The notes beneath the pieces were generated by a model. That model saw nothing but the letters and a program-made list of their open reading frames with translations, did not search any database and had not been told where the DNA came from. 64,000 nt of DNA from an uncultured Methanosarcinales archaeon (GTDB taxonomy: Archaea; Nanobdellota; Nanobdellia; Woesearchaeales; CAXGTL01): contig CAZHVK010000001.1 of assembly GCA_964535955.1 (NCBI GenBank), positions 115,542 through 179,541 on the forward strand. The letters run 5' to 3'. Shown piece by piece: positions 12,795-30,956 of this stretch (its first letter is position 1; each line of letters opens with the position of its first letter). A program made the translations under genes and the position numbers.

Positions 12795-13532
12795 TCAAAC
12801 CTCAAGCAAAAAGAAATAATGATATCTGTTTAAAGGGTTATTGTAAGTTTTTATTATATTAAATCCTTGTCTTTTGAATTCTTTTTTTATTCTTTTTAAT
12901 GAATTCCCTTTTCTACCAATTTCCCAATAATGATCTCCTTTAAATTTGTGTTTTTTATAGAGGGCAAATTGGAATTTTAGAAATTTCCTACCAATAATTG
13001 GCAAATCTGTGAAAAAGACAAATCCAATATGAGAATAAGGTAATGAAATTAAGACATATTTTTTTGCTACTTTTTTTATCCCTTGTAATGCTTTTGAAAA
13101 ATCAGAAAATGGTATATGTTCAAGTACTTCACAACATGAAACAAGATCAAATTTCTTATTTTTTAATTTTGTATTACTAATATTTCTTACATCACAAACA
13201 ATGTCTGGATCTAAAACTTTATTGATGTCTGCTGTAGTTACTTTTATATTTCTTTTTTTTAAATAATCTGAAACTGTTTTATTTCCACAGCCTATTTCTA
13301 AGACTGTTTTTAGTTTGTGTTTTGGTTTTGTTTTGGATTGTAGTTTTGTTTTTTGTTTGGTTCTTGTCTCTAGAATCAACCTAATTTGGTCATAATAAGA
13401 AATAAACCTTACTAAACTATCATAATTATCATAGTATGTTGATTTGTTATTGACTATGTTTTTATCTAGATTTTTAAATTGATTTTTACTTATGTTTTTG
13501 TATTTATTTTTAGATTTCATCATTAAAATCAT
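12795..13532 (-). CDS. Class I SAM-dependent methyltransferase
   Basis: Motif I is VLEIGCGNKTVSDYL with an acidic motif II downstream. A K-rich low-complexity insertion is present. The 5' end overlaps the AglB stop by 4 nt (ATGA). Confidence 0.6.
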   Translation of the reverse strand: MILMMKSKNKYKNISKNQFKNLDKNIVNNKSTYYDNYDSLVRFISYYDQIRLILETRTKQKTKLQSKTKPKHKLKTVLEIGCGNKTVSDYLKKRNIKVTTADINKVLDPDIVCDVRNISNTKLKNKKFDLVSCCEVLEHIPFSDFSKALQGIKKVAKKYVLISLPYSHIGFVFFTDLPIIGRKFLKFQFALYKKHKFKGDHYWEIGRKGNSLKRIKKEFKRQGFNIIKTYNNPLNRYHYFFLLEV

Positions 13533-16500
13533 ATCACAGTAACGTCTGTTAGATTAGCATGAACATAACTTTTTAACAAATACTCTGGTCTTTGAGTCAG
13601 GTTTTCTGGATAATCAATTTCCCAAATTTTTAGTGGGCCTAATAATCTTCCATTGTATGAAACAACATTGCCCAAATTCATTCCTGATTGTTGATTAATG
13701 CTTTCAATTGCTGGATGTTGTTGGCTTAAAGCTAGTTTGAATCCATCTGTAGAATATCTTGGATTTTGTTGTTCAAATAAGAAAAGATTAACCCATAATG
13801 AATGCAAAGCATCATGACCAAGATAAAGACCAGCACCATTAGGATTAAATCCATTGTTATTTATAGTTGGGATAATCATAAAACAATTATCTAATCCTGG
13901 TTCATCGAAATAAATTATGTTTCCCTGATAATAAAGACATTGTATTGGAACCTGAACAGGCTGTTGACCATCTTGAAAAAGTAATGTATATGGTTGAAGA
14001 ATTTGCATATCTGTTTTAGTTTGTCCATCACTTGTTGTTAATTTAATACTCTTAGTAGGAATATAAACATCTTTCACTGCAGAGACTCTTGCCGAATATT
14101 TGAAACCATTCCATTCAATATCTTCATCATTTGCTGCAATTCCTTCATAAATCATTGTTACCCCATCCCTTGTTTCTTTTGTTAATTGTGGATTATTATT
14201 AAAAGTAGGTATCCAAGTATATCTATCATAATCTGCATCTGAACCAATTGATGAATAAGCTCCTATTTTTCCTATTTCATCTGTTATAACCAAGAAGTGT
14301 GTTGCATTGTGCATGTTTAAAAATTCTAATGCTTCTGTTTGATCTTGTGCCATTAATGCATGCCTACCCATAAGATGGTTCCAATATCCAATCCAATTTC
14401 CACCATCTGTTACAGTGGTTCTTTCACCACCTGTCTGAACCCAATAACCATAATCCCACCAATGTGTGAATACTGCGTCTTCTGAAGTATTTTCCCTCAT
14501 CCATTTTCCTGCTAATTGCCATTGTTGATCATAGCTTGGTCCTGTAATCCTTGCCTGGCCCATGCTTTGTGCTGCATAATTAATTACAAAACCATTTTTA
14601 TTAATAAAAGGTGCTTTGTTAATAAGAGGGATTGCATTAACAGTAGATGCAAAAGGCCAAAATACTATGATTAATATAACAACTAAAAAAATCACTGCAG
14701 TAATTTTATATACCTTATCCTTACTATTCTCTAATAATTTTTTTGTTTGAGATATTAAGAAGAAAATAGAATAGCCAACCAAGATTGAAGTAATTGGTGC
14801 AAGCATCAAAATAAGTCTTAAAGCACTTCTTGCTGCAACTAACATCATAATAAACCAAATCATAATAAAAATATATTTTTTGTCAATGAGTTTAATTCTA
14901 CTATATTTTTGTTTGTCAAAATAGAATAAATAAAAATAAGATAATAATATTAAAATCACAAATGCTATAAAAGAACCAATATAAACTGTTTTTGATAAAT
15001 AGGTTTCACCATTCCAAACAGGGCTTTCTCTTCTATATCTACTCATTGTAAATAAAATTAAAAATAAACCATAGATAGTTGTGTAAACTAATGAATGAAC
15101 GCATAATGATTCCTTTTTAAGAATAGGTTTTAAAGTATAATAAAATAAAATTAATGCTCCTACAAAAAATAAAAGTATGAAAGGCCAAGTGAATTCACCG
15201 ATCCAATTGGTAAAATAAGGCTGATGAGATTCTGCAACTGTTAATCCCCATCTTGATTTTCCAAAAGGGTTTATCATGTCTGTAAAAACAGCATTGATTT
15301 TCATCCAGACAAAAGCAGGGTTAAAAATAATAGAAGTGCCTATTATTGATAATATTGCTGAGATTATTATACTAAAAATACCCACAGGTAGTTTTCTGCT
15401 TATTTTTTCTTTTATTTTGAGAAGATCTAATTTAAACAAAAGGAAATCAAGAATAGCAATTAATGAAACAAAAATGGCAAAGCTTGCACTAAATGATTTT
15501 ATTAATCCATAGATTCCACCAAATTTGTTTGTTATAAATCCCATCAATATAATCATTGGTATTACCCAAGACATTGATAAATAAAAATCTTTTTTAGTAA
15601 ATTTATTTAATAAAATCTCAACAAGAATAAAACCTGCAAATAACATCAAAGTAAAGTTAACACCACCCCAAGTTAAACCCATAAGGCCTGTTGCTATACC
15701 TGAAAATAGTCCTAATAAGATTATTTTCCAAAAAACCTTAGATTTCCAACCAATAATGAAAAAATAAAATGCCATGTACATAAGCATAAGACCAAGAGAT
15801 TCTTTATCAGAAAAACCAGCCATTGTTCTGTAAAGATAAGTTGGAATCACTGTAAGTATTAATGTTGAAATAAGTGCTACTTTTTTGTTGAATAAATTCT
15901 TTATAATTAAGAAAAAGAATATTAAACTAACAGCAAAACAAATAGGTGGGTAAAGTATATCTGCAAATTCAATTGTTATATTTGAATTGAATAAATTAAG
16001 AAATTTGTATAAATAAACAATAAATTTTGAAAGAAATACTGTTTCTCTATTCATATCAGCACCAAAAGGATAATATCTCATTACATCCATAGCATAAAGT
16101 TGTCCATATTCTACTATATATTTTGCATATCTTAAAAATAAGTGTGGATCTAAAGCTAAAGGTATATATTTATTTGTTGTTATATCTCTTAATAAAGGAA
16201 GATTCTGTAGTCTAACTGCAAGTCCTGAATTAATTATGTATAATAATGCAATGTAAAAATATTTTTTATAATAAATTAGAATAAATGATATTATTGGCAA
16301 TATAATAAAAAATGAAATATAACTAAATTTTGTTAATGGTAATGGTATAAAGATATCAAAAAAAAATAAACTTGTTTTTTGAAACTTATACAAATAATAA
16401 CCATATAAGATAATTAGAAAAAATAATGAATAAAATAAATTTCTTGAGTCTTTTTTGATGAATTCAACTAATTGTGCTTTTCTTTGATTAAAATCTAATT

Positions 16501-16738
16501 GTTTTGATTCTTTGCCTGATTTTTGGCTTTGTGATGTTTCTGATGACTCAATCGTTGGGACTATTTCCTCTTCAACTTCTTTTGTAAAGAAGTTTTTGAT
16601 TGAAGAGACAAGTTTTTCTTTTTTTTGGTTTATTGCTTGGTCTGATTTATCTATGATTGTATCTTTTTCTTTGTTTTCTTGTTTGTCTTCTTGTATATTT
16701 CCCATATTTTCTGTTTTTATTTCTTTATTTTCTTCCAT
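13529..16738 (-). CDS. aglB: Archaeal oligosaccharyltransferase AglB (STT3 family)
   Basis: 13 or more N-terminal TM helices, the catalytic WWDYG motif (THWWDYGYWVQTGGERTTVTDGGNW), and a large C-terminal periplasmic domain. Confidence 0.9.
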   Translation of the reverse strand: MEENKEIKTENMGNIQEDKQENKEKDTIIDKSDQAINQKKEKLVSSIKNFFTKEVEEEIVPTIESSETSQSQKSGKESKQLDFNQRKAQLVEFIKKDSRNLFYSLFFLIILYGYYLYKFQKTSLFFFDIFIPLPLTKFSYISFFIILPIISFILIYYKKYFYIALLYIINSGLAVRLQNLPLLRDITTNKYIPLALDPHLFLRYAKYIVEYGQLYAMDVMRYYPFGADMNRETVFLSKFIVYLYKFLNLFNSNITIEFADILYPPICFAVSLIFFFLIIKNLFNKKVALISTLILTVIPTYLYRTMAGFSDKESLGLMLMYMAFYFFIIGWKSKVFWKIILLGLFSGIATGLMGLTWGGVNFTLMLFAGFILVEILLNKFTKKDFYLSMSWVIPMIILMGFITNKFGGIYGLIKSFSASFAIFVSLIAILDFLLFKLDLLKIKEKISRKLPVGIFSIIISAILSIIGTSIIFNPAFVWMKINAVFTDMINPFGKSRWGLTVAESHQPYFTNWIGEFTWPFILLFFVGALILFYYTLKPILKKESLCVHSLVYTTIYGLFLILFTMSRYRRESPVWNGETYLSKTVYIGSFIAFVILILLSYFYLFYFDKQKYSRIKLIDKKYIFIMIWFIMMLVAARSALRLILMLAPITSILVGYSIFFLISQTKKLLENSKDKVYKITAVIFLVVILIIVFWPFASTVNAIPLINKAPFINKNGFVINYAAQSMGQARITGPSYDQQWQLAGKWMRENTSEDAVFTHWWDYGYWVQTGGERTTVTDGGNWIGYWNHLMGRHALMAQDQTEALEFLNMHNATHFLVITDEIGKIGAYSSIGSDADYDRYTWIPTFNNNPQLTKETRDGVTMIYEGIAANDEDIEWNGFKYSARVSAVKDVYIPTKSIKLTTSDGQTKTDMQILQPYTLLFQDGQQPVQVPIQCLYYQGNIIYFDEPGLDNCFMIIPTINNNGFNPNGAGLYLGHDALHSLWVNLFLFEQQNPRYSTDGFKLALSQQHPAIESINQQSGMNLGNVVSYNGRLLGPLKIWEIDYPENLTQRPEYLLKSYVHANLTDVTVI

Positions 16739-16744
16739 ATAAAA

Positions 16745-17305
16745 TCAACTCATTACACCTAAAAATTGATAAACAAATCTTTCTCTTAGTACTGTTAAAT
16801 CATAATTGTTTTGACTTTGAATAATATAACACATATTCTGTTTAAATATCTTTGATTCATTTCCACTTCTGATTAAAATAACTTCTGCAGAAGCGTCATC
16901 ACAATTAACCAAAGGAAGTTCATTATCTGGACAAGCCTTTTCTTTTATGCATGAAAATTGTGGCCGAATATTGTTTTGGTAAAACAAAGAAGCTAAATAG
17001 TTCATTGTAAAGCTTTTGTCAAGTTCTTTGTCCTCTTGATCATAAGCAAGATATATTTTTTGTCCTGTTATTGAAATAGGAGTTGAGTTCATCATTTCAA
17101 TATCTTTTGGCAGATAGTTAAATACCATCTTTTGATTGTTTATTGTCACATCCCAACCATTTTGTGAAGGGATGAATTTAAAACCATTATATTCTTCTTC
17201 ATTAGTTCCTGATGCTTTCCACATTCCAAAAACACTAAGTACCATAAGAATTAGAATAAATAATGCAACATTCTCTTTTCTTAAGATTAATCTTTTTTTT
17301 CCCAA
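16745..17305 (-). CDS. Hypothetical membrane-anchored protein encoded immediately upstream of aglB and probably co-transcribed with it
   Basis: N-terminal TM or signal anchor (LFILILMVLSVFGMW). No recognisable domain. Confidence 0.4.
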   Translation of the reverse strand: MGKKRLILRKENVALFILILMVLSVFGMWKASGTNEEEYNGFKFIPSQNGWDVTINNQKMVFNYLPKDIEMMNSTPISITGQKIYLAYDQEDKELDKSFTMNYLASLFYQNNIRPQFSCIKEKACPDNELPLVNCDDASAEVILIRSGNESKIFKQNMCYIIQSQNNYDLTVLRERFVYQFLGVMS

Positions 17306-17492: not shown

Positions 17493-18743
17493 TTACAATA
17501 TGTTTTTTATAAAATATAAATACTTTGGTTCTTTTAATAGTATTTTTATCAGCAGAGTTGTTATGTAATCTCTGTCATATTTACTTAATAGTTTCTTTAT
17601 CTTAGGCTGATTTGTTAGTTTGAATAAATAATCATAATCCTTGTTTGTGAATTTGTCAAGTGTTTTTCTTATGATAAGGTGAAGTAATAAATCTTTGTTT
17701 AATAGCTGATTGCATAATTTTAGATAGGATTTATTATTTTTGATTGATTTTGCTAAAGCTTGTGCTGCTAATAATGACTGAATTATACCACCTGCTGTGG
17801 TTGCTTTGATTTGGGTTGCTGCATCTCCTATAAGATATAATTGTAGATTTCTCTTTTTCCTGTAAATCAGGGCTCTTGGATTGTATATAGGTATAAGCCC
17901 TGCTTGGTAGTCTATGATTATACTATTTTGTTTGTTTTGTTTGTTTTGTTTGTTTTGTTTGTTGTTTATTAATCTTTTTTTGTTATTGATTTTGATATTG
18001 TGTGTTTTCTCAATTTTATTGATAAAATCATTGAAGACTTTTTTTTGATTCTTATAACAAGCAATTCCAACTCTTGCAATTGTGTCTGATTCTGGGACAA
18101 ACCATGCAAAACCTTTTTTAAGAGGGTAAAATTCAAGAGTATTCTTATTTTTTATATTTATTTTTATCCTAACTTGGATACCTATGAGGAATTTAGGATA
18201 TAATTTATGATTAATTGCCTTTGAAACTATACTTTGTGGACCGTCTGCTCCAATGAGATGATTGGTTGTGCATAATAGATTTTTGTTCTTGGTCTTTAGA
18301 ACAATTGTTTTATGATGTGTATTTTGTAGACGATGAAACCCTTGAAAATTGTGATTTAAGTAAATTTTTACTCCCAAATCTTGTGCTTTTTTAGATAAAA
18401 ATTGGTCGAATTTAGCACGATCCAGGACCAAATTTGGTTGATTTAGTTTAATTGTGATATATTGAGTGTTTGGTGAAACAATCTTTGCAAATTTAATCTT
18501 ATTTTTAATTAAGTTTTTTGGTAATTTTATAATTTTATTAATAGAATTCGTCACCAAACCAGTACATTTGACAGGAATTCCAATATTATTGTGTTCTTCA
18601 AATACTGAAATCCTGTGATTTGTATTTTTTGCTAGTAAATATGCAGTATACAATCCAGCAGGTCCTGCTCCAATAATTGCTACATCTGTTTTTAATGTTT
18701 TAGATATTCTTGTTCTTGGTTTTTTTAATGGTTTTTTATACAT
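17493..18743 (-). CDS. Geranylgeranyl reductase family FAD-dependent oxidoreductase (archaeal lipid saturation) with an (NKQ)n insertion
   Basis: FAD-binding motif VAIIGAGPAGLYTAYLLAK and the GGR-family fold. The NKQNKQNKQNKQN insert is encoded by a 9-nt microsatellite. Confidence 0.8.
   Translation of the reverse strand: MYKKPLKKPRTRISKTLKTDVAIIGAGPAGLYTAYLLAKNTNHRISVFEEHNNIGIPVKCTGLVTNSINKIIKLPKNLIKNKIKFAKIVSPNTQYITIKLNQPNLVLDRAKFDQFLSKKAQDLGVKIYLNHNFQGFHRLQNTHHKTIVLKTKNKNLLCTTNHLIGADGPQSIVSKAINHKLYPKFLIGIQVRIKINIKNKNTLEFYPLKKGFAWFVPESDTIARVGIACYKNQKKVFNDFINKIEKTHNIKINNKKRLINNKQNKQNKQNKQNSIIIDYQAGLIPIYNPRALIYRKKRNLQLYLIGDAATQIKATTAGGIIQSLLAAQALAKSIKNNKSYLKLCNQLLNKDLLLHLIIRKTLDKFTNKDYDYLFKLTNQPKIKKLLSKYDRDYITTLLIKILLKEPKYLYFIKNIL
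17928..17966. repeat. 9-nt tandem repeat (tttgttttg) x about 4 encoding (NKQ)n within the GGR gene
   Basis: The repeat is directly visible in the sequence. Confidence 0.85.
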
Positions 18744-18772: not shown

Positions 18773-21712
18773 TTATTTCTCTTTATTTGTTATTTTACTT
18801 CTTTTTTTATCTATTATAATCAGAATAATCAGAATAGTAATTCCAAGTCCTATAAAATATAAATATTCTTTAATGTAATCAATAAAATAGATTATAGTAT
18901 AGATAATTGCTGCAAGTAATATTATCCAAATAAGAATTTTAAACAAATTTGTTTTTTTTGTTGATTTGTTTGATTTCTCAGGCTTTTTTTCTTTTTTTGA
19001 CTTTTTTATTTTTTTTGTTTTTAATTCTTTTCTTGCTTTTTTTTTCATGTTCTTTTGTTTTACTTTTTCTTTTGATTTTTTTTCTTTTTCTTTACTTTTT
19101 TTGCCTTTTTGTGTCTTTGAAGTTTTTCTTTGTTTGTTTGTAATAAAATTAATAATTAAGATTAATACTACCAAAATAACAAAACCAAGAATAACATAAT
19201 AAAGATAAGATGAGTAAGAAGAACTATATTTAAAAAAGAATTGCTTAATAGAGGTTGCATTTAATTTAGGCTCAGTTGTTCTTATTAGAGATTGTCCAAA
19301 CTCTGTTTCTTTTGTTGTCTTTGTTTCTTCGCCTGTGTCTAATTCTTCTCCTGTGTCTAATTCTTCTCCTGTGTCTAATTCTTCACCTGTGTCTAATTCT
19401 TCACCTGTGTCTGGTTCAAAGACATCCTTGGTAACATCGTCTGTAACATTGTCGGCAATACCTAATCCTTTCTGAGTATAAGAAGAAAAATTTAACACTT
19501 TATTTATATTAACTATTACATGGGAACTAGAAAAATACAAACCAATTAGAATTAGTAATATTATTACAAAAAAAAGAATTATCTTAAGATATTTCCAAAA
19601 TTTTCCTGTTTTTTTAGGTTTTTCTAATTCTAATCTATATCCTTGCCCAAGATGTTTGTCATTAAAACTTAATTCTAGGTCAGACATAAAACCTTTTGGT
19701 TTTTGTTTGGGTTTCTGTTTTGATTTCTGTTTTAATTTCTGTTTGGGTTTTTGTTTAAGTTTTGATTTAGGTTTTAATTTCTGTTTGGGTTTTTGTTTAA
19801 ACATTAATTTCAGTTTAGCTATTATTAGGCTGATTATGTTTTTTCCTTTCCTTTTTTGTGTTTTTCCTGCTTTGTGTTGTAATTTTTTCTTGTCTTCTTT
19901 TGATTTTGTTTTTCCTTTTATTTTTTCCTTTTCTTTACCTTTTCCTTTTATTTTTGGTTTTTGTTTTTCTTCTCTAATAAAATATGTTGTTGAACCTATA
20001 ATGATCAGGATTATAATGACAATAATTATTATTAAAACCAAGATGTCTGCTCTACTTAATCCTGCTTCTTTTTCCATAATTAATTTAGTTGAATAAGTGA
20101 AATTGTTTGTGTTTGCTAAAAATAAAGCTTCAAACTTGTCTTGAGAAGTATTTGTAGGAAGGATGACATTTATGTTAACAGTTGAATTTTCATTAGGATT
20201 TATTGTTACTTCATCTTGTTCTAATGAAAACATATCACTTGGTTCAATTGCAAGATCATATGTTGATTTTAAAACACCTGTGTTCTGAATATCTAATGCT
20301 AAAGATGTTGTATTTTCATTTATTATGAACTTATCTTTAAGAGGTGTAATATCATAACATTGATCATCTGAAATTGTTTTGATAGTTATGCTTTTCTTTA
20401 TTTCTAAGTCTGGATTTGATTTTGATTTTATTATGACTTTATTAGAAGTATAATAATTTTCTTCAGGAGTTGTTATTATGTTAAATTCTGCTTCTGAATT
20501 CTTTGGAACAGAAATAGATTCTTTTTCAAGTTTAGATGAATTGTCACCTTCTAATTCTAATTCAAAATCAGTATCTAAATCAGCATTATTGATTATTTTT
20601 ATTGGTATACTTGTTGGTACCTTGTTGCAAGCTTTTAGACCTTCCGGAACAATAATATTAAAATCATAACATTCATTTATGGTTAGATTTGTATTAAATG
20701 TTTTTTTAAAAGAAGCTTTATCTAATTTAATTGTGAATGTTGTAGGATATACTCCTTTTGAATCTTTACTTGGGTGAGAAGTAAAATTAAGTTCATATCC
20801 TGTTTTAGGGCCTAAAGTGATTTTTTTAAATGGTATATCTATAAAATTTGGACCTTCAACAGAAAGAATAAATGATGCTTCACTATCTTCATTATTTTTT
20901 ATTTGTATGAGTTCTGTGTATTTTTGTTGTTCACAAAAACTGTATTCTTCATCAATGTCTGCTGAAAAATCAAACTTAGGGATTACATTTGTCTGAAAAT
21001 AAGTGGCCGCTTTTAGTTTTGTCTTATCTGTTTTTATAATTAATTTAACAGTTTCAGTTCCAAAATAATCACAAGATGGTTTAAAATAGACTATTAATGA
21101 TTCCTCTTTACCTGGTTGTAAGGTGAAAGATTTCTTGTTTATTGAAAAATATTCCTTTATCCACCACCGAGGTTTTATTTGAATATCAAAATTTTCTGAA
21201 AAAGAACCAATATTTTTGATTTTAAACTCATAAATCAAAGACCCGCATGAAGAGATTGTTTGATTAGAGTTTATTGGTGTTACTTTTATATTACTGCATC
21301 TGTTGATATTGACAGTTTTAGTCAACCTTTTTTTATAATTATTCTCATCTGAAACAATAGTATCTAATATAAAGGATCCTTGCTTGTCACAAGGGGCCTG
21401 TATAACATTATATATTATTTGCTCTTTTCCTGACCCTAACAAAATGGTCTTAGGATTAATATTTGAGAATTCAGCAGCTTTATTCTGATTAGAAATTTTA
21501 TAAGTATGGCTTAAATATCCTTTGTTTTTTATTTTTAGTTCTTCTACTATATCTGAACATTGGCAGAGGTTGATTTCCTTGTCCTTTGAGGTTAATAAGA
21601 AGTCTTCTGATGCTAAAATTAGTGAAGAAAATGAAATTAATGTAATAAAAGATAGGATTATAATTAAATAAAAACTAGAAATTCTATTTAGTCTACCAAC
21701 CCCATAACTCAT
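18773..21712 (-). CDS. Large (979 aa) cell-envelope protein: signal/TM anchor, multiple beta-rich extracellular domains, internal TM helices separated by very K-rich loops, and a (DTGEEL)5 acidic repeat
   Basis: N-terminal hydrophobic segment. Repeated beta-sandwich-like segments (CARDB/DUF11-like patterns such as NIKVTPINSNQTISSCGSLIYEFKIKN). Several TM helices are flanked by KxK-rich stretches. Confidence 0.5.
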   Translation of the reverse strand: MSYGVGRLNRISSFYLIIILSFITLISFSSLILASEDFLLTSKDKEINLCQCSDIVEELKIKNKGYLSHTYKISNQNKAAEFSNINPKTILLGSGKEQIIYNVIQAPCDKQGSFILDTIVSDENNYKKRLTKTVNINRCSNIKVTPINSNQTISSCGSLIYEFKIKNIGSFSENFDIQIKPRWWIKEYFSINKKSFTLQPGKEESLIVYFKPSCDYFGTETVKLIIKTDKTKLKAATYFQTNVIPKFDFSADIDEEYSFCEQQKYTELIQIKNNEDSEASFILSVEGPNFIDIPFKKITLGPKTGYELNFTSHPSKDSKGVYPTTFTIKLDKASFKKTFNTNLTINECYDFNIIVPEGLKACNKVPTSIPIKIINNADLDTDFELELEGDNSSKLEKESISVPKNSEAEFNIITTPEENYYTSNKVIIKSKSNPDLEIKKSITIKTISDDQCYDITPLKDKFIINENTTSLALDIQNTGVLKSTYDLAIEPSDMFSLEQDEVTINPNENSTVNINVILPTNTSQDKFEALFLANTNNFTYSTKLIMEKEAGLSRADILVLIIIIVIIILIIIGSTTYFIREEKQKPKIKGKGKEKEKIKGKTKSKEDKKKLQHKAGKTQKRKGKNIISLIIAKLKLMFKQKPKQKLKPKSKLKQKPKQKLKQKSKQKPKQKPKGFMSDLELSFNDKHLGQGYRLELEKPKKTGKFWKYLKIILFFVIILLILIGLYFSSSHVIVNINKVLNFSSYTQKGLGIADNVTDDVTKDVFEPDTGEELDTGEELDTGEELDTGEELDTGEETKTTKETEFGQSLIRTTEPKLNATSIKQFFFKYSSSYSSYLYYVILGFVILVVLILIINFITNKQRKTSKTQKGKKSKEKEKKSKEKVKQKNMKKKARKELKTKKIKKSKKEKKPEKSNKSTKKTNLFKILIWIILLAAIIYTIIYFIDYIKEYLYFIGLGITILIILIIIDKKRSKITNKEK
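19330..19420. repeat. 24-nt tandem repeat x5 (cctgtgtctaattcttc[a/t]...) encoding (DTGEEL)5
   Basis: The repeat is directly visible in the sequence. Confidence 0.9.
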
Positions 21713-21807
21713 TTGTTGTACCTTTCATTCTTTTTTGATTTATCAAATAATTAAATAATAAAAATGTTTAAAAAAAGAAAATAAAAAAAAAATTAAAAGA
21801 TCAAAGC

Positions 21808-23169
21808 TTAGTAATAACTTTTGTCTTCTTCTTCTAGGTCTTCTTCATCTTCTCTTAATTTATTGAAACCAATGATTAAACCTAAAAGCACTAACAAAAT
21901 CACTAAAACAATTAATCCTATTTCTAGCACTCTTCTGAAGCTTACTTTTTGTTTAGCTGCACTAGCAATACTTAGTTCAGCTGCTTCTTCTTTAACAACT
22001 TTTCCTTCAGAGTCTTTTACTTTGATTGAAACTAATTGTTTTCCTGAAGGTGCATCTTCTCTTGCAGTTGCAAGTACTAAAACAGTTTTTGTTTTTCCAG
22101 CTTCAACAACAACTGAAGTTTCTTGTGCTTTTACTTCGGATGCCCAATCTCCTAATGCTTCAGTACTTATAACAAATGCTTTTGAAGTATCAGCATTATT
22201 GCTTATAACTACTGGGAATGTTGCAACTCTTTGTGATTCAGTTAAAACTTGCATTCCACTGATAACATTAACAGCTGTTTCTTTTGCTTGAGCTTCTTCC
22301 TTACACAAGTCTAAGTCTGACTCAACAACAGTGATTGTTCTTTCTTCTGTTTCTGATTCATCACCATCATCAAACTTAACTTCAACTTCTACTGTGTATT
22401 CTCCTGCTTTTGTGCATGGATCAACTTCGAATGTAAGTGGTTCTGTTGATGCATCTTCATCATACTTAAGTTCTGATAATAACCATGTTGAATCCATTGC
22501 ATTATCTAAACCTGGTATTCTTGCAATAACTTTGATGTCATCTTCTACTGAATCAAATTCACCGATGTTTTCTAGTCTCACCTGAACAGTTAATAGATCT
22601 CCTGCCATTACTCTTGACTCAGGGTGTAACATGATATCTTTGATCTTTATCATGTGATCTTCTTTTGGTGAAACAACTATCTTGAATGTTCCGTCTAGTG
22701 CTTTACCTTCATTATTGAATAATTCCATTTTTTGATTTTCTTGGAACAAATCAATAAATAATGTAGCTTCTGGAACTTCCAAATCTAAATCATCTGGTAG
22801 AGTTAATCTTGCTACTACGTTTTCTACACCACCATTTGCTTTTATATCAAGCTTCATTGTGTCTTCAATTCCTTCTTCGTCATCATCATACCAAATGTAA
22901 ACTCTCATAGTTACATCTTCTACGTCTACATTGTCAGTATTTTCTAAAGTCATTTCTATTTCTATTTCTTCCCCTCTATCAACGTGTGCAGTACGTTCTC
23001 TATCTGATCCTAGTTTCATATCTACTCCGTCAATTAATAGTTCATCTAAAATTAATTTTCCGGATAGACTTGTTGTTTCTGCAGCTGATTCATCAGCGAT
23101 TGCAAAAACACTTAGTACAAAAATGCTTATTAGCAAAATTGTCAATCCTAAAATGTTTTTTATCTTCAT
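21808..23169 (-). CDS. Acidic secreted surface protein (S-layer/surface glycoprotein-like) with an N-terminal signal peptide and a C-terminal TM anchor
   Basis: Signal peptide MKIKNILGLTILLISIFVLSVFAIA. Very acidic beta-rich body. C-terminal anchor IGLIVLVILLVLLGLIIGF plus an acidic tail. I chose the start at 23169 because a GGAGGG SD lies 8 nt upstream; the ORF track extends to 23247. Confidence 0.55.
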   Translation of the reverse strand: MKIKNILGLTILLISIFVLSVFAIADESAAETTSLSGKLILDELLIDGVDMKLGSDRERTAHVDRGEEIEIEMTLENTDNVDVEDVTMRVYIWYDDDEEGIEDTMKLDIKANGGVENVVARLTLPDDLDLEVPEATLFIDLFQENQKMELFNNEGKALDGTFKIVVSPKEDHMIKIKDIMLHPESRVMAGDLLTVQVRLENIGEFDSVEDDIKVIARIPGLDNAMDSTWLLSELKYDEDASTEPLTFEVDPCTKAGEYTVEVEVKFDDGDESETEERTITVVESDLDLCKEEAQAKETAVNVISGMQVLTESQRVATFPVVISNNADTSKAFVISTEALGDWASEVKAQETSVVVEAGKTKTVLVLATAREDAPSGKQLVSIKVKDSEGKVVKEEAAELSIASAAKQKVSFRRVLEIGLIVLVILLVLLGLIIGFNKLREDEEDLEEEDKSYY

Positions 23170-23495
23170 TTTTAATATCCCTCCAACACGAGTTTTAAAG
23201 ATCTTAAATCTTTTCAAACCATATATTATAAAAGTAAACATACCCAATATTTAAACTTTTCTATTTTAAAGTAATTACTTTTAATAACCATTTAGGAGTT
23301 ACTATTGACATAATATGTATTATTTGATCTTTCAATCAATTAATAATCCCCTGGCAATATATAGTTATTATCTTACACCTCATTTTTGTGTGATTGATAA
23401 TCATGATTCTGATTATTCTTTTCCTCTTTTTTTTATTTTTTCTTTGTTTTTTGTTTTTGTGTAATCAATGAAAAAATAATAATAAAATAATGAAA

Positions 23496-25397
23496 TTAAA
23501 TAACTTTTATTCTTCTTATCTTAACTCTTTGATCAGTTCCTGTTGAGATAATTATCCTCATTTCATATGTTCCTGGCATTGTTTTTTCAGGTATTTTAAG
23601 GACAACTTCTTTTGTTAACATGTCGTCATCATCTATTTCAAATGGACCCATTTCTTCTACAAACCCTAATTTTGGTGCTATAATGTGAAGAACTGCTTGA
23701 TCAATGTCTTTTGCTCTTTCTTTTGCAAAATTAACTGAAACATCTACTTTGTCTCCAGGTTTGAAATAAACTTGATTATCATTAGTCTTTATTCTACCTA
23801 CAAATAAATCTCTTTTAGCTGAATCAACAGCAGTGATTGTTACTGTATCTGAAGAAGTTAATTCTCCATCTGAAACTGTTAATTTAAAGACATATTCTCC
23901 TGTTCTTTCTGGTGTAAAAGATGCACGAGCTTGGTCAACATTGTTCATAGTCACTGTTTCTGGACCATCTTCAAATGTCCATTCATAAGTTAACATTGGA
24001 TCAAAAGGATTTGGATCGTATGAACCTGTACCATCTAATTTAAACAATACATCAACTACAGCTTCTTTATCATTTCCTGCATCTGCTACAGGTCTTGTGT
24101 TAATTGCATCCTCACCTGTAACTACAACATTAAACTCAGCCACACCTGCTAAACCTTGGTCATCAAAAGCAACTATTTGCAAAAGATGTGTGCCTGCTTT
24201 TGTGTAATAATGAGATTTATCAAAGTTGTATGATGCTGAGTTAGGAGTAAATTCTTCTGATTCACCATCTCCATAATAAATTATAACTGCCTCAATTAAT
24301 GTATCATCTGTAACTTGACCATTAAATGAAACTTCTAAAGGAGCATCTCCTTCTAAAGGACCTGCTGTTGCAGTAACTTCTGGTCTTTGATTATCTGGAT
24401 CAATTGAAACTAGAAAGTTTGTTACATAAACAACTGCGCCTTCTTGATCAGGTGCATATTCAAATCTTTCTGTTTTACCATTATTAATAACTTCACATTC
24501 CCAATGTTTTACTGCTGCATTATAATTACAAGTAGTATCAAATTGATTATTATGTTCATTTTGTCCTGATAAAGTACATGTACTTTTTTCTATATCACAG
24601 ACATTTAAATTTCCATCTAAAAAGAAATAATCTTTGTCTTTGTGATAACCTTCTGCTGAATGTTCAACTGCATAAGCCCTATTAGCATTAACTACAAAGT
24701 TTGCATTAGGTGTTCCTGTCTTAACAATACCACCTAAATCAACTGTTACTGGTTTTATGAATGCTTCTGTATTATAATCTTTTGCAGATGTTTTAACAGT
24801 GAATTGTGTTATAGCAGGAACTGATGTTTGTGCATCATCTGTTGGTTCTTGTGTATCTTCTTCTGTTTGGTCATCTGTTTGTTCGTCTGTTTGTTCGTCT
24901 GTTTCTTCTCCTGTTAAAGGTACTAAGAAATTTGTTACATAAACAACTGCGCCTTGGTCAGGTGCATATTCAAATCTTTCTGTTTTATCATTATTAACAA
25001 CTTTGCATTCCCAATGTTTTACTGCTGCATTGTAATTGCAAGAAGTAACATAATTATGATTATGATCATCATTACCTGTTAATGAACAAGTTGCTTGTTG
25101 TATATCACAAGTATCAAGATCACTGTCTAAAAAGAAATAATCTTTGTCTGATTTATAATTATCTGCTGAGTGTGTGACTGCATAAGCTCTGTCAGCACTA
25201 ACAGCGAAATTTGCATTAGGATTTCCTACTGCTTTAATTCCACCTAAATCAATATCACACGGTTTAATGAATTGTTCTGTGTTATAGTCTTTTGCAGATG
25301 TTTTAACAGTAAAAGTTGAGTATGCTGCTAATGCACCTGAAGCAATGACTATTGAAATCACAAGAAACATAAAAATCATATATTTTAGTTTTGCCAT
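23496..25397 (-). CDS. Secreted protein with two tandem copies of a novel domain of about 140 aa, separated by an acidic T/E/D/Q linker, followed by two PKD-like domains
   Basis: Signal peptide present. An internal duplication runs FTVKTSAKDYNTE.FIKP...NYNAAVKHWEC.V.NN.KTERFEYAPDQ...VVYVTNFLV. PKD motifs include WTFEDG...GEYVFKLTVSDG. The start at 25397 has a GAGAGGT SD upstream. Confidence 0.55.
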   Translation of the reverse strand: MAKLKYMIFMFLVISIVIASGALAAYSTFTVKTSAKDYNTEQFIKPCDIDLGGIKAVGNPNANFAVSADRAYAVTHSADNYKSDKDYFFLDSDLDTCDIQQATCSLTGNDDHNHNYVTSCNYNAAVKHWECKVVNNDKTERFEYAPDQGAVVYVTNFLVPLTGEETDEQTDEQTDDQTEEDTQEPTDDAQTSVPAITQFTVKTSAKDYNTEAFIKPVTVDLGGIVKTGTPNANFVVNANRAYAVEHSAEGYHKDKDYFFLDGNLNVCDIEKSTCTLSGQNEHNNQFDTTCNYNAAVKHWECEVINNGKTERFEYAPDQEGAVVYVTNFLVSIDPDNQRPEVTATAGPLEGDAPLEVSFNGQVTDDTLIEAVIIYYGDGESEEFTPNSASYNFDKSHYYTKAGTHLLQIVAFDDQGLAGVAEFNVVVTGEDAINTRPVADAGNDKEAVVDVLFKLDGTGSYDPNPFDPMLTYEWTFEDGPETVTMNNVDQARASFTPERTGEYVFKLTVSDGELTSSDTVTITAVDSAKRDLFVGRIKTNDNQVYFKPGDKVDVSVNFAKERAKDIDQAVLHIIAPKLGFVEEMGPFEIDDDDMLTKEVVLKIPEKTMPGTYEMRIIISTGTDQRVKIRRIKVI

Positions 25398-25566
25398 TTT
25401 TATATTACCTCTCATAGTTTTTCATTATATTAATTTATGATTGTAAATTGTGTTGATTTTTGTTGTTTTATTTAAATTTTATGTTATTGCTTTTATTCTT
25501 TGTTGTTCTGTTGTTGCTATATTATAATAATACTATTATATTAAATAAATCAAAAAAATAAAAAAA

Positions 25567-26283
25567 TTAAAATGGATACTTTAAGTCTCCATCTCCTTTA
25601 CCTGAATCTGAACCAAAATCTGGTACTGTTGCAGGTGTTGTTGTTCCTGGGTCATTATCCTTATCAAAGAATATTTTATAAATACCCCAAGCACCTAGGA
25701 CTCCTACTCCTATTTTTTCTCCATCTGACAAATTATCCCAAAATGAACCTTTCTTGTCTGGTCCTGGAGTACTTGTTGAAGCAGATGAACCACTTGTACC
25801 ATAGCCCATTGTTTTTATTAATAAACCCATTTCTGTGTAAAGGTCATCTTGAAAATCTTCACCGATTTCAAAAGTATATGAAAACATTCCTGGAGCATTA
25901 GTTTTTTTATCATCTTCTAAACATGAAACATTGATTTCTTCACCATCATATTCAAAGTTTCTTGATCTTAGAATTTTCTTTTTCATTTTAGCAAAATCTG
26001 TTAATTTCAAACCTAAATAATGAGGTATTCTTGCTCCTTGTGCATTTGTTACAAATGTTCTATATTTAGCATTAGACATTAATCCAACAATTCCTTGAAG
26101 AACTTTTTCTTCTTTGTCTTCTATTTCTCTTGTTTGGTTTTCAACCTTAATAGATCCATTTTCTGCTGCTTTTGCTGGTGTTATATAACCAAGCATAGGA
26201 GCTACTAACATTGATAATGCTAGACCATAACCTAATATTGTATTTTTTATTCCTTTTGTATATTCCATATATTTCCCCTCCAC
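25567..26283 (-). CDS. Secreted hypothetical protein with a Gly/Ser/Thr-rich C-terminal tail
   Basis: N-terminal signal peptide (LGYGLALSMLVAPMLGYITPAKAA). No recognisable domain. Confidence 0.45.
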   Translation of the reverse strand: MEGKYMEYTKGIKNTILGYGLALSMLVAPMLGYITPAKAAENGSIKVENQTREIEDKEEKVLQGIVGLMSNAKYRTFVTNAQGARIPHYLGLKLTDFAKMKKKILRSRNFEYDGEEINVSCLEDDKKTNAPGMFSYTFEIGEDFQDDLYTEMGLLIKTMGYGTSGSSASTSTPGPDKKGSFWDNLSDGEKIGVGVLGAWGIYKIFFDKDNDPGTTTPATVPDFGSDSGKGDGDLKYPF

Positions 26284-26557: not shown

Positions 26558-28873
26558 TTAAAGAGCTATTGAAGACCTTTTATTAGATGAAGGCTTTGTG
26601 AAATCAATATGAACTACTTTTTCTTGTGAAGATAAGATTAATTTTTCTAATGAGGTTTTGTAATGATCTAATAATCTAATTCCATGTTCACGAGGATTTT
26701 CTTTATAGTCATCAAGAATAATTGAATATAAATCTGATAATGATTCATAATCCTTATCTTTATTGTTTGAAAAGAATAATATTTTTGATAAAAATCTTCT
26801 AAAGATGTTTGTAAATGGTAATTCTGAAAATGTTCTTTCTACTTCTTTTGGATCAATCTGTTTTTTTACTTCAAGGTATAATTCTCTTAAAACATCAGAG
26901 TCTATTTGTTTATTTAATTCAAAAAATAATCCTTTGAATTCATCTTGATCTGTTGTTTTTAATAATTCTGCGAATTTATCTGAACCAAGAACTCTGTTCA
27001 TTGCAATGATTTGTTCGTCTGTTTGTTTTATTCTTTTTTTTGCTTCATCTATCATTTCTTGTTTTGTTTGTTCATCATCTAAATTATTGTTTGAAGAATT
27101 TGTTTGATTTTTTTTTGATTTAAACACATTAAAGATTTTATTAAAAAATTTTGATTCTTCTCTATTTTCAACAAGGTCTTTTAAATTTGTTAAATATGTC
27201 TGTTTTTGTTTAAACAAATTATTTATTATTGGAAGAGCTTTATGCCAATAAGAAGATGAAATTTTTGACAATCTTCTAATTTCTTCACAGTATTCAATTT
27301 CCCCAAGATCAAAAGCTGAAAATCCTAATTTTGTTTTAATGTGTTCAATAGTAGAAACTCTATCTTCTTCACAATCAGGTTTATATTTTTCTTCAACCCT
27401 TCCACTCATGATAAGAAACTTAGGATCAAATTTATTTCTTAATTTGAGTATGGTATTTATCATTGTTCTTCCTTTTATTGATTTTTCTAAATAAGACATC
27501 AAACTAAGATTGACTATATTATTGGAATATTTATAAGCAATTTCACCATCTTGTTTTATTATATTAACTAAATTTGATTTAAAATCTTGATATTTTTTTT
27601 CAGGGTCATTTTGTGTAGTTATCAAGGCATAATTATTCTCTTCATAATAGGCATTACTATTACTATTATTATTGGTTTCAATTACTGATTTAAGATAAAT
27701 AATTATCTTTGAAAGAAGTTGAGAGGAATAATTTCTATTTTGTATTACTTTAGATAATTTAGTCATATTGTCTTTATGAAATTCTTCTAGCAAAAATCTG
27801 ATAAGGAATGGCGATTCCTCATAAGTTTGTTCTTTTTCATGCAATCTAAATATATTTTTTACTATCAAATTCTTTTTATCAAAATCTCCTAAATACTTTT
27901 TGATGATTTTAGTAGAAAAACCTAGTTCGAGTAAAGCTTCAATCTTTTCAGAATTATCATAATCCACTGATTTAACAGTATTCATTGTCTGATCAAAAAA
28001 TTCCTTTGAAACTGCTTTTGTTTTTTTTAATAATATCTCATCTAGTGATGAAATTTCTAACTCAGCACTTAGATTTTCATTCTCAGAAACCTTATTATAA
28101 TGGTGAACAAAAAAATCTGTTAATGATTGAGCATTGTTTATCATTAAATAAGATTTAATCTCTGAAATCATAAATAATTGAATTAAGGTTTTTATTGAAT
28201 CTTTTTCTTTATCAAAAAGAGATTTATCTTTATGTAGAAAATAACAATAATTATCCTTCAAAGGTTCTTTTTTTGCAAGTTCCTCAAGTGTTGATCTTTG
28301 ATTGTCTTTGTAATTTTTAATGTCAAAAACAGATGAACAATATTTATTATAATGTTTCTTATGTGTTCCCATAATAGAAGTTATTGTTTTATCTTTTCTG
28401 TCTGCAAAAACAAAGTATAAATCAGCAAAAATATCTGTACTTGGTGGCAAACCACCTTGAAAAGTTAGTAAAAAAGTAATGTTTTTATTTTTTCTTTCTC
28501 TAGCTGTATATTCTATTTCTTTTTGCATAATACTTTCTAATTTTTCTGAATTGCCCATCCTAATTGTCTTTGCACCTGCAATATATTCTATTTTAGGTTC
28601 TGCATTAGGATTGTCTAAATCAAGATGTGCTAAATCAACATCAATTGAAACAAAATAAGGAAGAAGTTCTTTTCTTACATTACATCCTGCATCTTTAAAA
28701 TCAGGATTATTTAGACAATAATTATAACAATCAGAAGTTATTGTCCTAACAGTGTTTTCTGCTGTAACTGTTTTTCCTTTATCACCATCACCAGCAATAA
28801 TAACAGTTGTAACTTTAACATCATTAGAATTAATATAATCAGTATTTGTTTGTGATGATGCATAGTCTAACAT
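26558..28873 (-). CDS. Large (771 aa) hypothetical protein with a putative N-terminal P-loop (GDGDKGKT)
   Basis: VTTVIIAGDGDKGKTV fits beta-strand plus Walker A GxxxxGKT. A possible Walker B follows at FVSIDVD. The rest is alpha-rich with no recognisable family. Confidence 0.4.
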   Translation of the reverse strand: MLDYASSQTNTDYINSNDVKVTTVIIAGDGDKGKTVTAENTVRTITSDCYNYCLNNPDFKDAGCNVRKELLPYFVSIDVDLAHLDLDNPNAEPKIEYIAGAKTIRMGNSEKLESIMQKEIEYTARERKNKNITFLLTFQGGLPPSTDIFADLYFVFADRKDKTITSIMGTHKKHYNKYCSSVFDIKNYKDNQRSTLEELAKKEPLKDNYCYFLHKDKSLFDKEKDSIKTLIQLFMISEIKSYLMINNAQSLTDFFVHHYNKVSENENLSAELEISSLDEILLKKTKAVSKEFFDQTMNTVKSVDYDNSEKIEALLELGFSTKIIKKYLGDFDKKNLIVKNIFRLHEKEQTYEESPFLIRFLLEEFHKDNMTKLSKVIQNRNYSSQLLSKIIIYLKSVIETNNNSNSNAYYEENNYALITTQNDPEKKYQDFKSNLVNIIKQDGEIAYKYSNNIVNLSLMSYLEKSIKGRTMINTILKLRNKFDPKFLIMSGRVEEKYKPDCEEDRVSTIEHIKTKLGFSAFDLGEIEYCEEIRRLSKISSSYWHKALPIINNLFKQKQTYLTNLKDLVENREESKFFNKIFNVFKSKKNQTNSSNNNLDDEQTKQEMIDEAKKRIKQTDEQIIAMNRVLGSDKFAELLKTTDQDEFKGLFFELNKQIDSDVLRELYLEVKKQIDPKEVERTFSELPFTNIFRRFLSKILFFSNNKDKDYESLSDLYSIILDDYKENPREHGIRLLDHYKTSLEKLILSSQEKVVHIDFTKPSSNKRSSIAL

Positions 28874-28973: not shown

Positions 28974-30956
28974 TTACTCCATAATGCTTTCTTCTAAAGC
29001 TTTGTAAGCTTCTTCACATTCATTGATTAATTCTTTGTTGTCTGCTTTTTTCTGTTCTAGTTCAGTGCTTACTTGTTGTAGTTCTACTGTTGTTTCTCCA
29101 AGTTCTGTTTCTACTTCCTCTGTTCTTTTTTCAAGTTCTTGTAAACTAATCTTTCCTTGGTCATACAATCTTCTATTTTTGTCTCTTTCTTTTCTTAATG
29201 TAGTTGTTTGTTTTTCAAGTGTTTGTTTTGCTCCTTGGAGTTCGCCTACATTTGCTGCTAATTGTTTTTCTTGTTCTTTTAGTGCATCTATGTCAGTTTG
29301 TAAAACATCAATTTTTTCTTCTTGTGTTTTCTGAATACCTTCAACTCCAGTTCCAACTTTAGTAACAGCAGTACCAACACCTGCAACCTTAGTACCTACA
29401 CCCTCAACCTTAGTACCTACACCAGAAACTGCAGTAGAAACTTTTCCTGTTTCTGTTGTTACAGTTGTTACAACTTTTTCTTGAACATTTTTTTGTCCTT
29501 GTGCTAGTTCTGTTTTTGTTTTTCCTAATGAACTTAAGAAACTAGGACCATAGATTATACCAGCAGTCAATAGTACTCCTGATAGAACCAAACCTGCTCT
29601 TCCAAAATACTTAACAATTGTGCTATTTTCTTTAACTTCTCCAACAACTTTTTCCTCAGAATCAATAACTTGTTCTTTTGTTTCTTCTTCCTGGACAGAA
29701 ACTTCACCAAGTACATTTACTAATCCACCAAGATCTTCTAAACCATTAAGTCTAGCTTGTTTGAATTCTTTTTCTCTTTGTTTGCCTTGTTTTTCTTTTT
29801 TTACTTGTTCTGTTTCTTCTTGTCCATCATATTCTAATAAATTTTGATTAAGTGCAGTTATCTGTTCAATTAATAATTGCTTTTTTTGGACATAATTCAT
29901 ATTAATTGTAGCTAATCTTCCAAACCTATCTTCTAAAACTTCTAAATTCTGATGTGTTCTTATCTTGTGTTTATCTTGTTCAAAATATTCAACTCCATCT
30001 TTACTTGTACTGTTTTGTGGAAGATTTTTTGCGATTAGCTTTAATCTGTCATCAAACTTATATTTTGATGTTTTAAATGCATCAATCATGTGTTTGATTG
30101 GATCTTTTTTAATCTCCTTAACCATTTTCTTTGTTATCTCTTGGCCAGGATTCAAGATCTCTGCAACAGACATTACTAATGCTTCTGCTTTTTCTGGGTT
30201 ATCCTTTTTAAGTTCTTTGAATTTATCTTCAAGTCTTTGTGTTTCATCTGTTTTAAATCCATCATAAACCTTAACATATGTTTTATTAAGATTGTCTTCA
30301 TATAATCCAGAGAAATCTGTTCGAAGATCATCAATTGTTTTATCTCTTTCCATTATATCAACAAGACCTGGCTTATTCATTGGATCTTTTTCATCACCAA
30401 GATAAACAGTTAGATCACTTGCTAATTTGCTTAATCCTTTGTCTTTATATAATTGTGCATAATCACTTACTAGATCATTAACACCTTCTGTATATCCATT
30501 TTCTTTTCTATAAAGAAGTAATGATACTGCTGTTCTTAATCCTGTTTCATCTTTTCCAATGCCTTTAAATTTACTCGCTAAGAATTTAAGTGCTTTATAC
30601 CAAGGATCTGTTTTAAGTGTTTTTAATATTGTTTCATTATCAGCACTTTCACAAAGTTTTTTTCTTTTTTCCATGTCTATAAAATTTTCTTCTGGAAAAT
30701 ATTGCATGCTAATTGCATTTGCAACTTGTTTTTGAATAACTTCATCAACATTTGCATCTTTGTACAAAGCTTTTGCAAATAATTCATTGAATCTGATTCT
30801 GTCGTATGGTTCTCTTTCTGGTGTGCCCAAACCTTGTGCTACTTTTCTTTGTGTATCTTTATCTGTGTTTTTTAATATTTTTAAAATTTTGTCTGCTTCA
30901 CTAGAAGCATATTTTGTTTTCTTCTTTCCTAATCCTAACATATTAATCCCTCCCAC
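28974..30956 (-). CDS. Membrane-anchored coiled-coil protein with N-terminal annexin-like repeat(s), a (VGTKV)-type G/V/T repeat and a C-terminal coiled coil
   Basis: KGIGKDETGLRTAVSLLLYRKEN...DYAQLYKDKGLSKLASDLTVYLGDE matches the annexin repeat pattern (KGxGTDE..L..IL..R ... Y..lY...L...I..e..Gd). GLGTPE is also present near the N-terminus. A TM helix is VLSGVLLTAGIIY. A heptad-rich tail follows. Confidence 0.45.
   Translation of the reverse strand: MGGINMLGLGKKKTKYASSEADKILKILKNTDKDTQRKVAQGLGTPEREPYDRIRFNELFAKALYKDANVDEVIQKQVANAISMQYFPEENFIDMEKRKKLCESADNETILKTLKTDPWYKALKFLASKFKGIGKDETGLRTAVSLLLYRKENGYTEGVNDLVSDYAQLYKDKGLSKLASDLTVYLGDEKDPMNKPGLVDIMERDKTIDDLRTDFSGLYEDNLNKTYVKVYDGFKTDETQRLEDKFKELKKDNPEKAEALVMSVAEILNPGQEITKKMVKEIKKDPIKHMIDAFKTSKYKFDDRLKLIAKNLPQNSTSKDGVEYFEQDKHKIRTHQNLEVLEDRFGRLATINMNYVQKKQLLIEQITALNQNLLEYDGQEETEQVKKEKQGKQREKEFKQARLNGLEDLGGLVNVLGEVSVQEEETKEQVIDSEEKVVGEVKENSTIVKYFGRAGLVLSGVLLTAGIIYGPSFLSSLGKTKTELAQGQKNVQEKVVTTVTTETGKVSTAVSGVGTKVEGVGTKVAGVGTAVTKVGTGVEGIQKTQEEKIDVLQTDIDALKEQEKQLAANVGELQGAKQTLEKQTTTLRKERDKNRRLYDQGKISLQELEKRTEEVETELGETTVELQQVSTELEQKKADNKELINECEEAYKALEESIME

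Follow-up and report, generated by a model that had tools for sequence, protein, structure and literature searches.

On the minus strand of the 64,000-nt stretch of DNA analysed here (the window; AT-rich, ~28% GC), three consecutive genes, g3, g2 and g1, appear to form a conserved envelope cassette in which g3 is docked to a surface layer (S-layer) through its C-terminal domain and displays a lineage-specific head, a reading that we hold with moderate confidence. New in this arrangement is its recurrent architecture, in which a swappable and amplifiable head sits on an invariant C-terminal domain that shares homology with the adjacent S-layer candidate, g2. The fold itself has been described before, and modules of these kinds are commonplace in archaeal surface proteins. 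The three genes are:

23496-25397, minus strand (open reading frame extending to 25415): g3, 633 amino acids (aa; 639 aa for the open reading frame), a secreted modular surface protein.
21808-23169, minus strand (open reading frame to 23247, probable start 23169): g2, 453 aa, a putative S-layer protein.
18773-21712, minus strand: g1, 979 aa, a polytopic membrane protein.

The gene order was compared across 11 lineages, namely the window, the contigs of five g3 relatives (P0024, P0002, P0004, P0008 and P0003) and those of five distant g2 homologues (P0072, P0095, P0112, P0121 and P0058). In 11/11 lineages, which span freshwater or groundwater, marine and other settings, a secreted protein that has the C-terminal domain at its end, and no transmembrane (TM) helix in that part, is followed by a g2-like protein and then by a g1-like polytopic protein. 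A flavin adenine dinucleotide (FAD) oxidoreductase gene lies adjacent to or near this triad in 8/11 lineages, sometimes on the opposite strand in the distant ones, and AglB/STT3 lies near it in 6/11, the window included. A marine (TARA) relative repeats the full order g4-g3-g2-g1-FAD oxidoreductase-186-aa protein-AglB, the oxidoreductase being 60% and the 186-aa protein 64% identical. The two outer members of this order are, in the window:

25567-26268, minus strand (open reading frame to 26283): g4, 233 aa (233-238), a small secreted protein.
13529-16738, minus strand: AglB/STT3 oligosaccharyltransferase (PF02516, E = 1.5e-16), a syntenic neighbour of the cassette.

Conservation between the window and the marine relative is uneven. 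At 61% identity, g2 leads the envelope proteins g1-g6 in conservation, and g1 reaches 39% over its ectodomain. The C-terminal third of g3 is 53% identical, while its N-terminal part could not be aligned by BLAST. Proteins at the g3 position range from 445 to 1444 aa, and g2 is uniform in length.

g3, which is identical to the database protein P0001, consists of a signal peptide, two Cys-braced transthyretin-like domains, two PKD domains and a C-terminal Ig-like domain:

25323-25397, minus strand: signal peptide MAKLKYMIFMFLVISIVIASGALA, followed by AYS at a cleavage site placed by eye; hydrophobic over aa 5-37 of the 639-aa open reading frame.
24918-25322, minus strand: transthyretin-like copy 1, ~135 aa, four conserved Cys.
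24813-24917, minus strand: acidic T/E/D/Q linker with imperfect 12/24/36-nt repeats (Tandem Repeats Finder, TRF, 24838-24915).
24405-24812, minus strand: transthyretin-like copy 2, 70% amino-acid and 78% nucleotide identity to copy 1.
24117-24392, minus strand: PKD domain 1, PF00801 at 24.7 bits against a cut-off of 23.5 for the isolated segment; weak match to collagenase PKD structures.
23832-24098, minus strand: PKD domain 2 (K319L-like), PF22352 E = 2e-14, PF18911 E = 1e-12, 2yrl_A E = 6e-7.
23499-23822, minus strand: C-terminal Ig-like (CARDB/NEW3-like) domain, ~108 aa (aa 526-633), ending RVKIRRIKVI; the proposed docking domain.

A preliminary description of this DNA had already pointed to an internal duplication in g3, a T/E/D/Q linker between the copies and two PKD-like domains, and all three are real. 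The nucleotide self-match of the duplication (E = 6e-77) is far past chance, and the linker comprises 36 aa, PLTGEETDEQTDEQTDDQTEEDTQEPTDDAQTSVPA. Pfam recovers both PKD domains (PF00801; PF22352/PF18911), the second at 53.7 and 48.2 bits (aa 446-528), and a Pfam scan of full-length g3 yields PKD matches only. The earlier figures for the duplicated unit, ~140 aa at ~75% identity, need correction in their second part, since the copies share 95/135 aa (70%) and 78% of nucleotides over 24921-25322 and 24408-24812. Overlooked at the time was the C-terminal ~108-aa domain. The ratio of nonsynonymous to synonymous substitution rates (dN/dS) between the copies is 0.35 at a dS of 0.55, which means that purifying selection maintains both copies and that the duplication is of some age.

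Around the fixed C-terminal domain, the heads differ in kind and in number of modules. There is one transthyretin-like domain in P0024, two in the window, three in P0002, P0004 and P0003 (in P0003 alternating with PKD domains) and six, as two blocks of three, in P0008. Heads without this domain are Big_7/Kre9-like Ig, Gly/Pro-rich with PKD-like domains, PKD-rich, or MopE-like and Cys-rich. The two copies of the window are nearest to each other, at 69% identity, and no other instance exceeds 39% to them. Amplification of the domain has therefore taken place independently in several lineages, each time at this locus. The preliminary description would have abandoned its surface-protein reading had the duplicated domain shown a common fold and no variability. 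The fold did turn out to be common (see below), yet copy number and heads vary between lineages.

Two of these heads deserve separate mention. P0008 (1444 aa) places the cassette in a second DPANN population (L091/L092; ENA ERZ23498963 SCRA20-1 scaffold_91, JGI 3300007504) and adds many PKD domains to its six transthyretin-like ones; this population stems from the same sampling project as the window, and head length therefore differs between such populations. At L097 (2-1441) and L099 (2456-5845), the g3-slot protein has a Cys-rich head with CxxC-type repeats above the same C-terminal domain, and the L099 head gives Cu-binding_MopE matches and a weak dockerin match. Judging from their sequences, such heads may be a different route to a disulfide-rich exposed head.

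g2 comprises a signal peptide, three Ig-like beta-sandwich domains, a C-terminal TM helix and an acidic tail. Its AlphaFold2 (AF2) model (pLDDT 85) contains a signal helix, the three sandwiches and the TM helix (aa 411-443 of 453). In a structure search, the sandwiches resembled CARDB and FixG_C domains and matched no solved S-layer protein. We found at least 80 homologues, mostly of 410-450 aa, in metagenome-assembled genomes (MAGs) of Woesearchaeota and Nanoarchaeota, and among those listed two (30-31% identity) bear the NCBI name 'putative S-layer protein'. The idea that the locus encodes S-layer candidates, voiced in the preliminary description, gains from the match of g2 to the NCBI family of that name (NF033506, E = 3.6e-21, profile positions 248-611 of 627) and loses from its score of 75.5 bits, which leaves g2 outside the family at the curated 110-bit cut-off. 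An S-layer role is also suggested by the signal peptide, the TM helix at the C-terminus, an acidic composition, a uniform length and strong conservation, and we infer that g2 is a putative, lattice-forming S-layer protein. In situ, annotated S-layer protein genes rank with the most highly expressed genes of Woesearchaeota (PMC11606122).

The link between the two proteins is a shared domain:

22324-22665, minus strand: middle domain of g2, homologous to the C-terminal domain of g3.

The g3 C-terminal domain matches every g2-like protein examined (E 1e-10 to 3e-17), and within the window this ~108-aa domain is present only in g3 and g2. We propose that g2 would be a membrane-anchored putative S-layer subunit, with its three Ig-like domains held by the C-terminal TM helix, and that g3, exported by its Sec signal peptide and lacking a membrane anchor, would stay on the cell surface through its C-terminal Ig-like domain, sitting on g2 or inside a g2 lattice. 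This domain, homologous to the g2 middle domain and the sole invariant part of proteins at the g3 position, would serve as the dock. Two PKD spacers, followed by the two disulfide-braced transthyretin-like domains with their flexible acidic linker, would project outward as the lineage-specific head, which could bind a host or a substrate and might thereby act in adhesion. More speculatively, the cassette may exemplify an undescribed two-component surface system, in which an anchored Ig-domain S-layer protein accepts a partner with a fixed dock and an exchangeable, amplifiable head that sets the host or substrate specificity of episymbionts; we offer this generalisation as a tentative possibility.

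Several points weigh against docking of g3 to an S-layer. Ig-like domains are widely shared by surface proteins, and sharing one need not mean contact; pairwise BLASTP between the g3 C-terminal and g2 middle domains was not significant. N-X-S/T sequons are absent from g3 (0 against 5.4 expected from shuffles, P = 0.003) and from g2 (0 against 1.7), which is unusual for archaeal S-layer components encoded close to AglB. For DPANN archaea, experiments have yet to determine an S-layer protein (bioRxiv 10.1101/2023.10.27.564410). Finally, the exact insertion point of the extra residues in the duplicated domain and its disulfide geometry, both treated below, are themselves predictions.

Gene order and topology would also suit another division of labour, with g3 as the lattice-forming outer subunit (SlaA-like), its transthyretin-like domains making up the lattice or canopy, and g2 as the membrane stalk or anchor (SlaB-like). 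As in slaA-slaB, a gene lacking a TM helix lies directly upstream of a co-oriented gene with a C-terminal one, the pair is conserved in 11/11 loci, and a SlaA-like/SlaB-like scheme has been proposed for Nanobdella (bioRxiv 10.1101/2023.10.27.564410). A lattice subunit should, however, be conserved, and in the g3-slot protein unrelated modules replace the N-terminal two thirds between lineages, while its more than threefold spread in length contrasts with a uniform and far better conserved g2. Since g3 and g2 moreover resemble SlaA and SlaB neither in sequence nor in whole-chain structure, we consider this assignment unlikely.

After its signal peptide, g3 has no TM helix, no lipobox and no archaeosortase signal by sequence and topology prediction, as would befit a protein that is secreted freely or attached only loosely, binds polysaccharide, metal or particles and plays no part in S-layer assembly; adjacency to g2 would then reflect co-regulation, and the C-terminal domain would be a common CARDB-like module. 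CarboxypepD_reg, PKD and CARDB are indeed generic parts of secreted enzymes and binding proteins, and a conserved acidic cluster in the duplicated domain (D13, D60, D62, D67, N132) could be a metal site. What such a protein explains poorly is a C-terminal domain that, in 11/11 lineages, keeps its place at the very end of the upstream gene despite full replacement of the head, which is hard to understand without a neighbour-linked role. Domains of this type are moreover confined, in the window, to g3 and g2, and g3 contains no catalytic domain. A free binding protein thus strikes us as distinctly improbable.

If g3 is S-layer-docked, the duplicated domain is what the window's version would display. 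A filter-free HMMER search of 1.84e9 (1.84 billion) cluster representatives at E <= 1e-3 returned 41 proteins, 11 of them at E <= 1e-10 and one being the window protein itself. Matching only at profile positions 19-73, the repetitive P0015 (1929 aa) was judged spurious or partial and excluded. Nearly all members carry a signal peptide, and the domain stands directly after it in 21/40 proteins, at the extreme C-terminus in 10 and internally in nine. Partner modules across the family are PKD, He_PIG, cadherin-like, MopE-like and CarboxypepD_reg. Sequon density in the family is bimodal: nine proteins have none, and others have 2.4-5.2 per 100 aa.

The failure of the preliminary description to recognise this domain is understandable, as no Pfam or NCBIfam model covers it, Pfam gave nothing for the isolated domain even at E <= 5, and 43 family instances gave no consistent Pfam match (a single one hit CarbopepD_reg_2, E = 0.069). 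The family signature reads Y-x-A-x-G-Y-x-x-D-x-D-x-x-Y-F-D...L-x-x-C...C...T-x-C...C-x-V...F-x-Y...N-x-L, with D67 and T94 invariant and the four Cys near-invariant. All four Cys are present in 47/54 instances, and losses occur only in pairs, C1 and C2 together in two instances and C3 and C4 together in four, one more instance being cut off where a truncated protein ends. Replacement of a single Cys was found in none of the 54. This pattern of paired loss supports C1-C2 and C3-C4 disulfides and would in turn place the domain in an extracellular, oxidising location. Of the conserved acidic or polar residues D13, D60, D62, D67, T94 and N132 (copy 1 numbering), those other than the invariant D67 and T94 are kept in 72-85% of instances; together they could bind metal (Ca2+) at an end of the sandwich.

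In structure, a seven-strand beta-sandwich core superimposes on solved members of the transthyretin-like (prealbumin-like) fold. With ~135 aa and 11 strands the domain exceeds the compact ~80 residues of that fold, structural alignments to transthyretin-like and CnaB-type matches cover at most 85/140 residues, and the Foldseek query TM score is at most 0.51. Beyond the core lie 55-60 extra residues, including a stretch at ~66-112 that would be pinned by the two putative disulfides. The duplicated domain represents a sequence family not described before, built on the common transthyretin-like/CarboxypepD_reg/CnaB sandwich, and the novelty first claimed for it shrinks to that of an unmodelled family. 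That g3 is a fibre subunit whose transthyretin-like domains act as CnaB-type modules of a pilin or stalk, each with an intramolecular isopeptide bond, is highly improbable, because the strand-1 Lys occurs in 10/54 instances (Arg in 21/54), the putative catalytic position 119 is mostly hydrophobic (V/I/L), only Asn132 of the triad positions is conserved (41/54), g3 bears no sortase-like or archaeosortase signal, and stability apparently comes from disulfides instead.

The DNA of g3 is present at >99.9% nucleotide identity in five assemblies, including scaffold_33 (182 kb) of ENA assembly ERZ23499079. Across these five independent assemblies of the population, g1-g3 differ only by a 6-nt indel at 20549-20554 (g1 ectodomain) and a single-nucleotide polymorphism (SNP) at 24279 (PKD domain 1 of g3), and we saw no population-level hypervariability. 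A further SNP lies outside g1-g3 at 35223, and an N run in L002 at 19655-19663 is a scaffolding gap. Such near-invariance within the population, and the triad in 11/11 lineages, contradict the preliminary description of the region as a variable island. A variable genomic island or recent horizontal transfer was likewise rejected, as synteny is conserved and ARAGORN found no tRNA genes in the window. GC content at 22-26 kb is 0.315 against about 0.27, a rise that coincides with the acidic g2 and g3 and is probably due to their Asp/Glu-rich coding.

g1 begins with a signal peptide and an Ig-like ectodomain of ~510 aa (aa 37-548), followed by 4-5 TM helices and including one 95-aa acidic outside loop, so that the earlier picture of alternating ectodomains and TM helices is overstated. 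Its Pfam matches are Ig_CFAP65/Cep192_D3/FixG_C/ASH and DUF2207_C, and it has 12 sequons, with AglB/STT3 nearby. Very basic loops between the helices were correctly noted; those at aa 582-702 and 862-919 contain 38% and 53% K+R. By the positive-inside rule, such loops are cytoplasmic. Orthologues mostly keep the plan of signal peptide, 330-520-aa ectodomain and TM helices with strongly basic loops. A by-product of AT bias was considered for the K-rich loops and rejected: basic loops (K+R 0.3-0.55) recur in most orthologues examined, including the Arg-heavy L094 and L096, and are thus a real feature. The reported (DTGEEL)5 repeat is also present:

19325-19412, minus strand: (DTGEEL) repeat in the outside loop of g1, 18-nt unit in 4.9 copies, 97% match (TRF).

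It is not found in the equivalent loop of the L086 orthologue and is lineage-specific.

All four consecutive minus-strand open reading frames g1-g4 exist as first listed, each with an N-terminal hydrophobic signal-like segment. They encode secreted or membrane envelope proteins, as stated; 'large' does not apply to g4. No family match was obtained for g4 in the profile libraries. In two relatives (L086/L087 and L091/L092) its position is filled by a ~265-aa gene without detectable sequence similarity to it. Between the cassette and AglB sit genes for the 186-aa protein (16745-17305), which is signal-anchored and matches no family, and for the FAD-dependent oxidoreductase (17493-18743), which its Pfam pattern suggests to be geranylgeranyl-reductase-like. 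On the other side, g5 (26558-28873, 771 aa) lacks a signal peptide and a TM helix and matches no family. g6 (28974-30941) encodes a coiled-coil protein of 655 aa that has a single TM segment (aa about 456-474), a 21-nt repeat for GVGTKV-like units at 29364-29436 and weak LegC2/C7 and crescentin-rod matches. Both are syntenic in the marine relative (g6 30%, g5 24% identity), so the conserved block reaches upstream of the surface genes.

Elsewhere in the window, a Pfam scan found Orc1/Cdc6, AglB/STT3 and a protein with PIN, T2SSE-ATPase and KH domains (48075-50006). A 671-aa transglutaminase-like protein (50003-52018) adjoins an ABC-2 permease (52021-53853). The seryl-tRNA synthetase (SerRS) of the window is 73-81% identical to those of MAGs labelled Pacearchaeota, Woesearchaeota or Nanoarchaeota. 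Together with the archaeal genes Orc1/Cdc6 and AglB, this identity points to a DPANN archaeon as the source, in agreement with the initial guess.

Woesearchaeota and Pacearchaeota have no cultured model, and no S-layer or host-contact protein of DPANN archaea has been defined by experiment. The three-gene cassette supplies targets: g2, which may form the lattice or the anchor, and the g3 slot, which would provide the variable outward component. Its invariant C-terminal domain is a bioinformatic handle with which lineage-specific head proteins can be retrieved and compared with host range, and the duplicated domain, as a so far unmodelled family of the transthyretin-like superfamily, is a candidate for a new Pfam entry. 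Should the docking idea be wrong, the result would still be useful but ordinary, namely a conserved envelope locus that encodes modular surface proteins of Ig-like type.

Among known systems, CarboxypepD_reg (PF13620; carboxypeptidase D, PDB 1qmu and 5aq0) has its fold class in common with the duplicated domain, which differs in being ~135 aa long instead of ~80, in not matching the Pfam model and in its extra stretch with two conserved putative disulfides, for which there is no PDB counterpart. Sequence membership of CarboxypepD_reg was rejected, with no hidden Markov model match above the gathering score and an hhalign probability of 0.6% to a bona fide segment. CnaB domains of Gram-positive pilins and adhesins (SpaA 5f44, CnaB2 8bdw) rely on an isopeptide triad that is not conserved here; the duplicated domain uses putative disulfides, in an archaeal organism and without a sortase signal. 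The g3-type C-terminal domain resembles CARDB, NPCBM_assoc (NEW3) and FixG_C, with all Pfam matches below gathering thresholds, and is set apart by its strict C-terminal position and its basic terminal strand, R-x-K/R-x-R-x-I-x-I/V.

For g2, NF033506 (PACE-CTERM-PROT) is matched over most of its profile, and that family's own function is only putative. An MSTP/DUF1608 S-layer tile has been proposed for DPANN archaea (bioRxiv 10.1101/2024.05.28.596244), and Pfam and structure searches did not reveal an MSTP-like beta-sandwich tile fold in g2. The closest analogy to g3/g2 is the SlaA/SlaB gene pair of Sulfolobales (PDB 8qox), whose arrangement of adjacent, co-oriented TM-less and TM-anchored genes recurs in g3/g2 in 11/11 lineages. 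The two systems share no homology, and g2 is without a coiled-coil stalk. The cassette further differs from SlaA/SlaB in that its upstream partner combines a swappable head with a domain homologous to the anchor protein.

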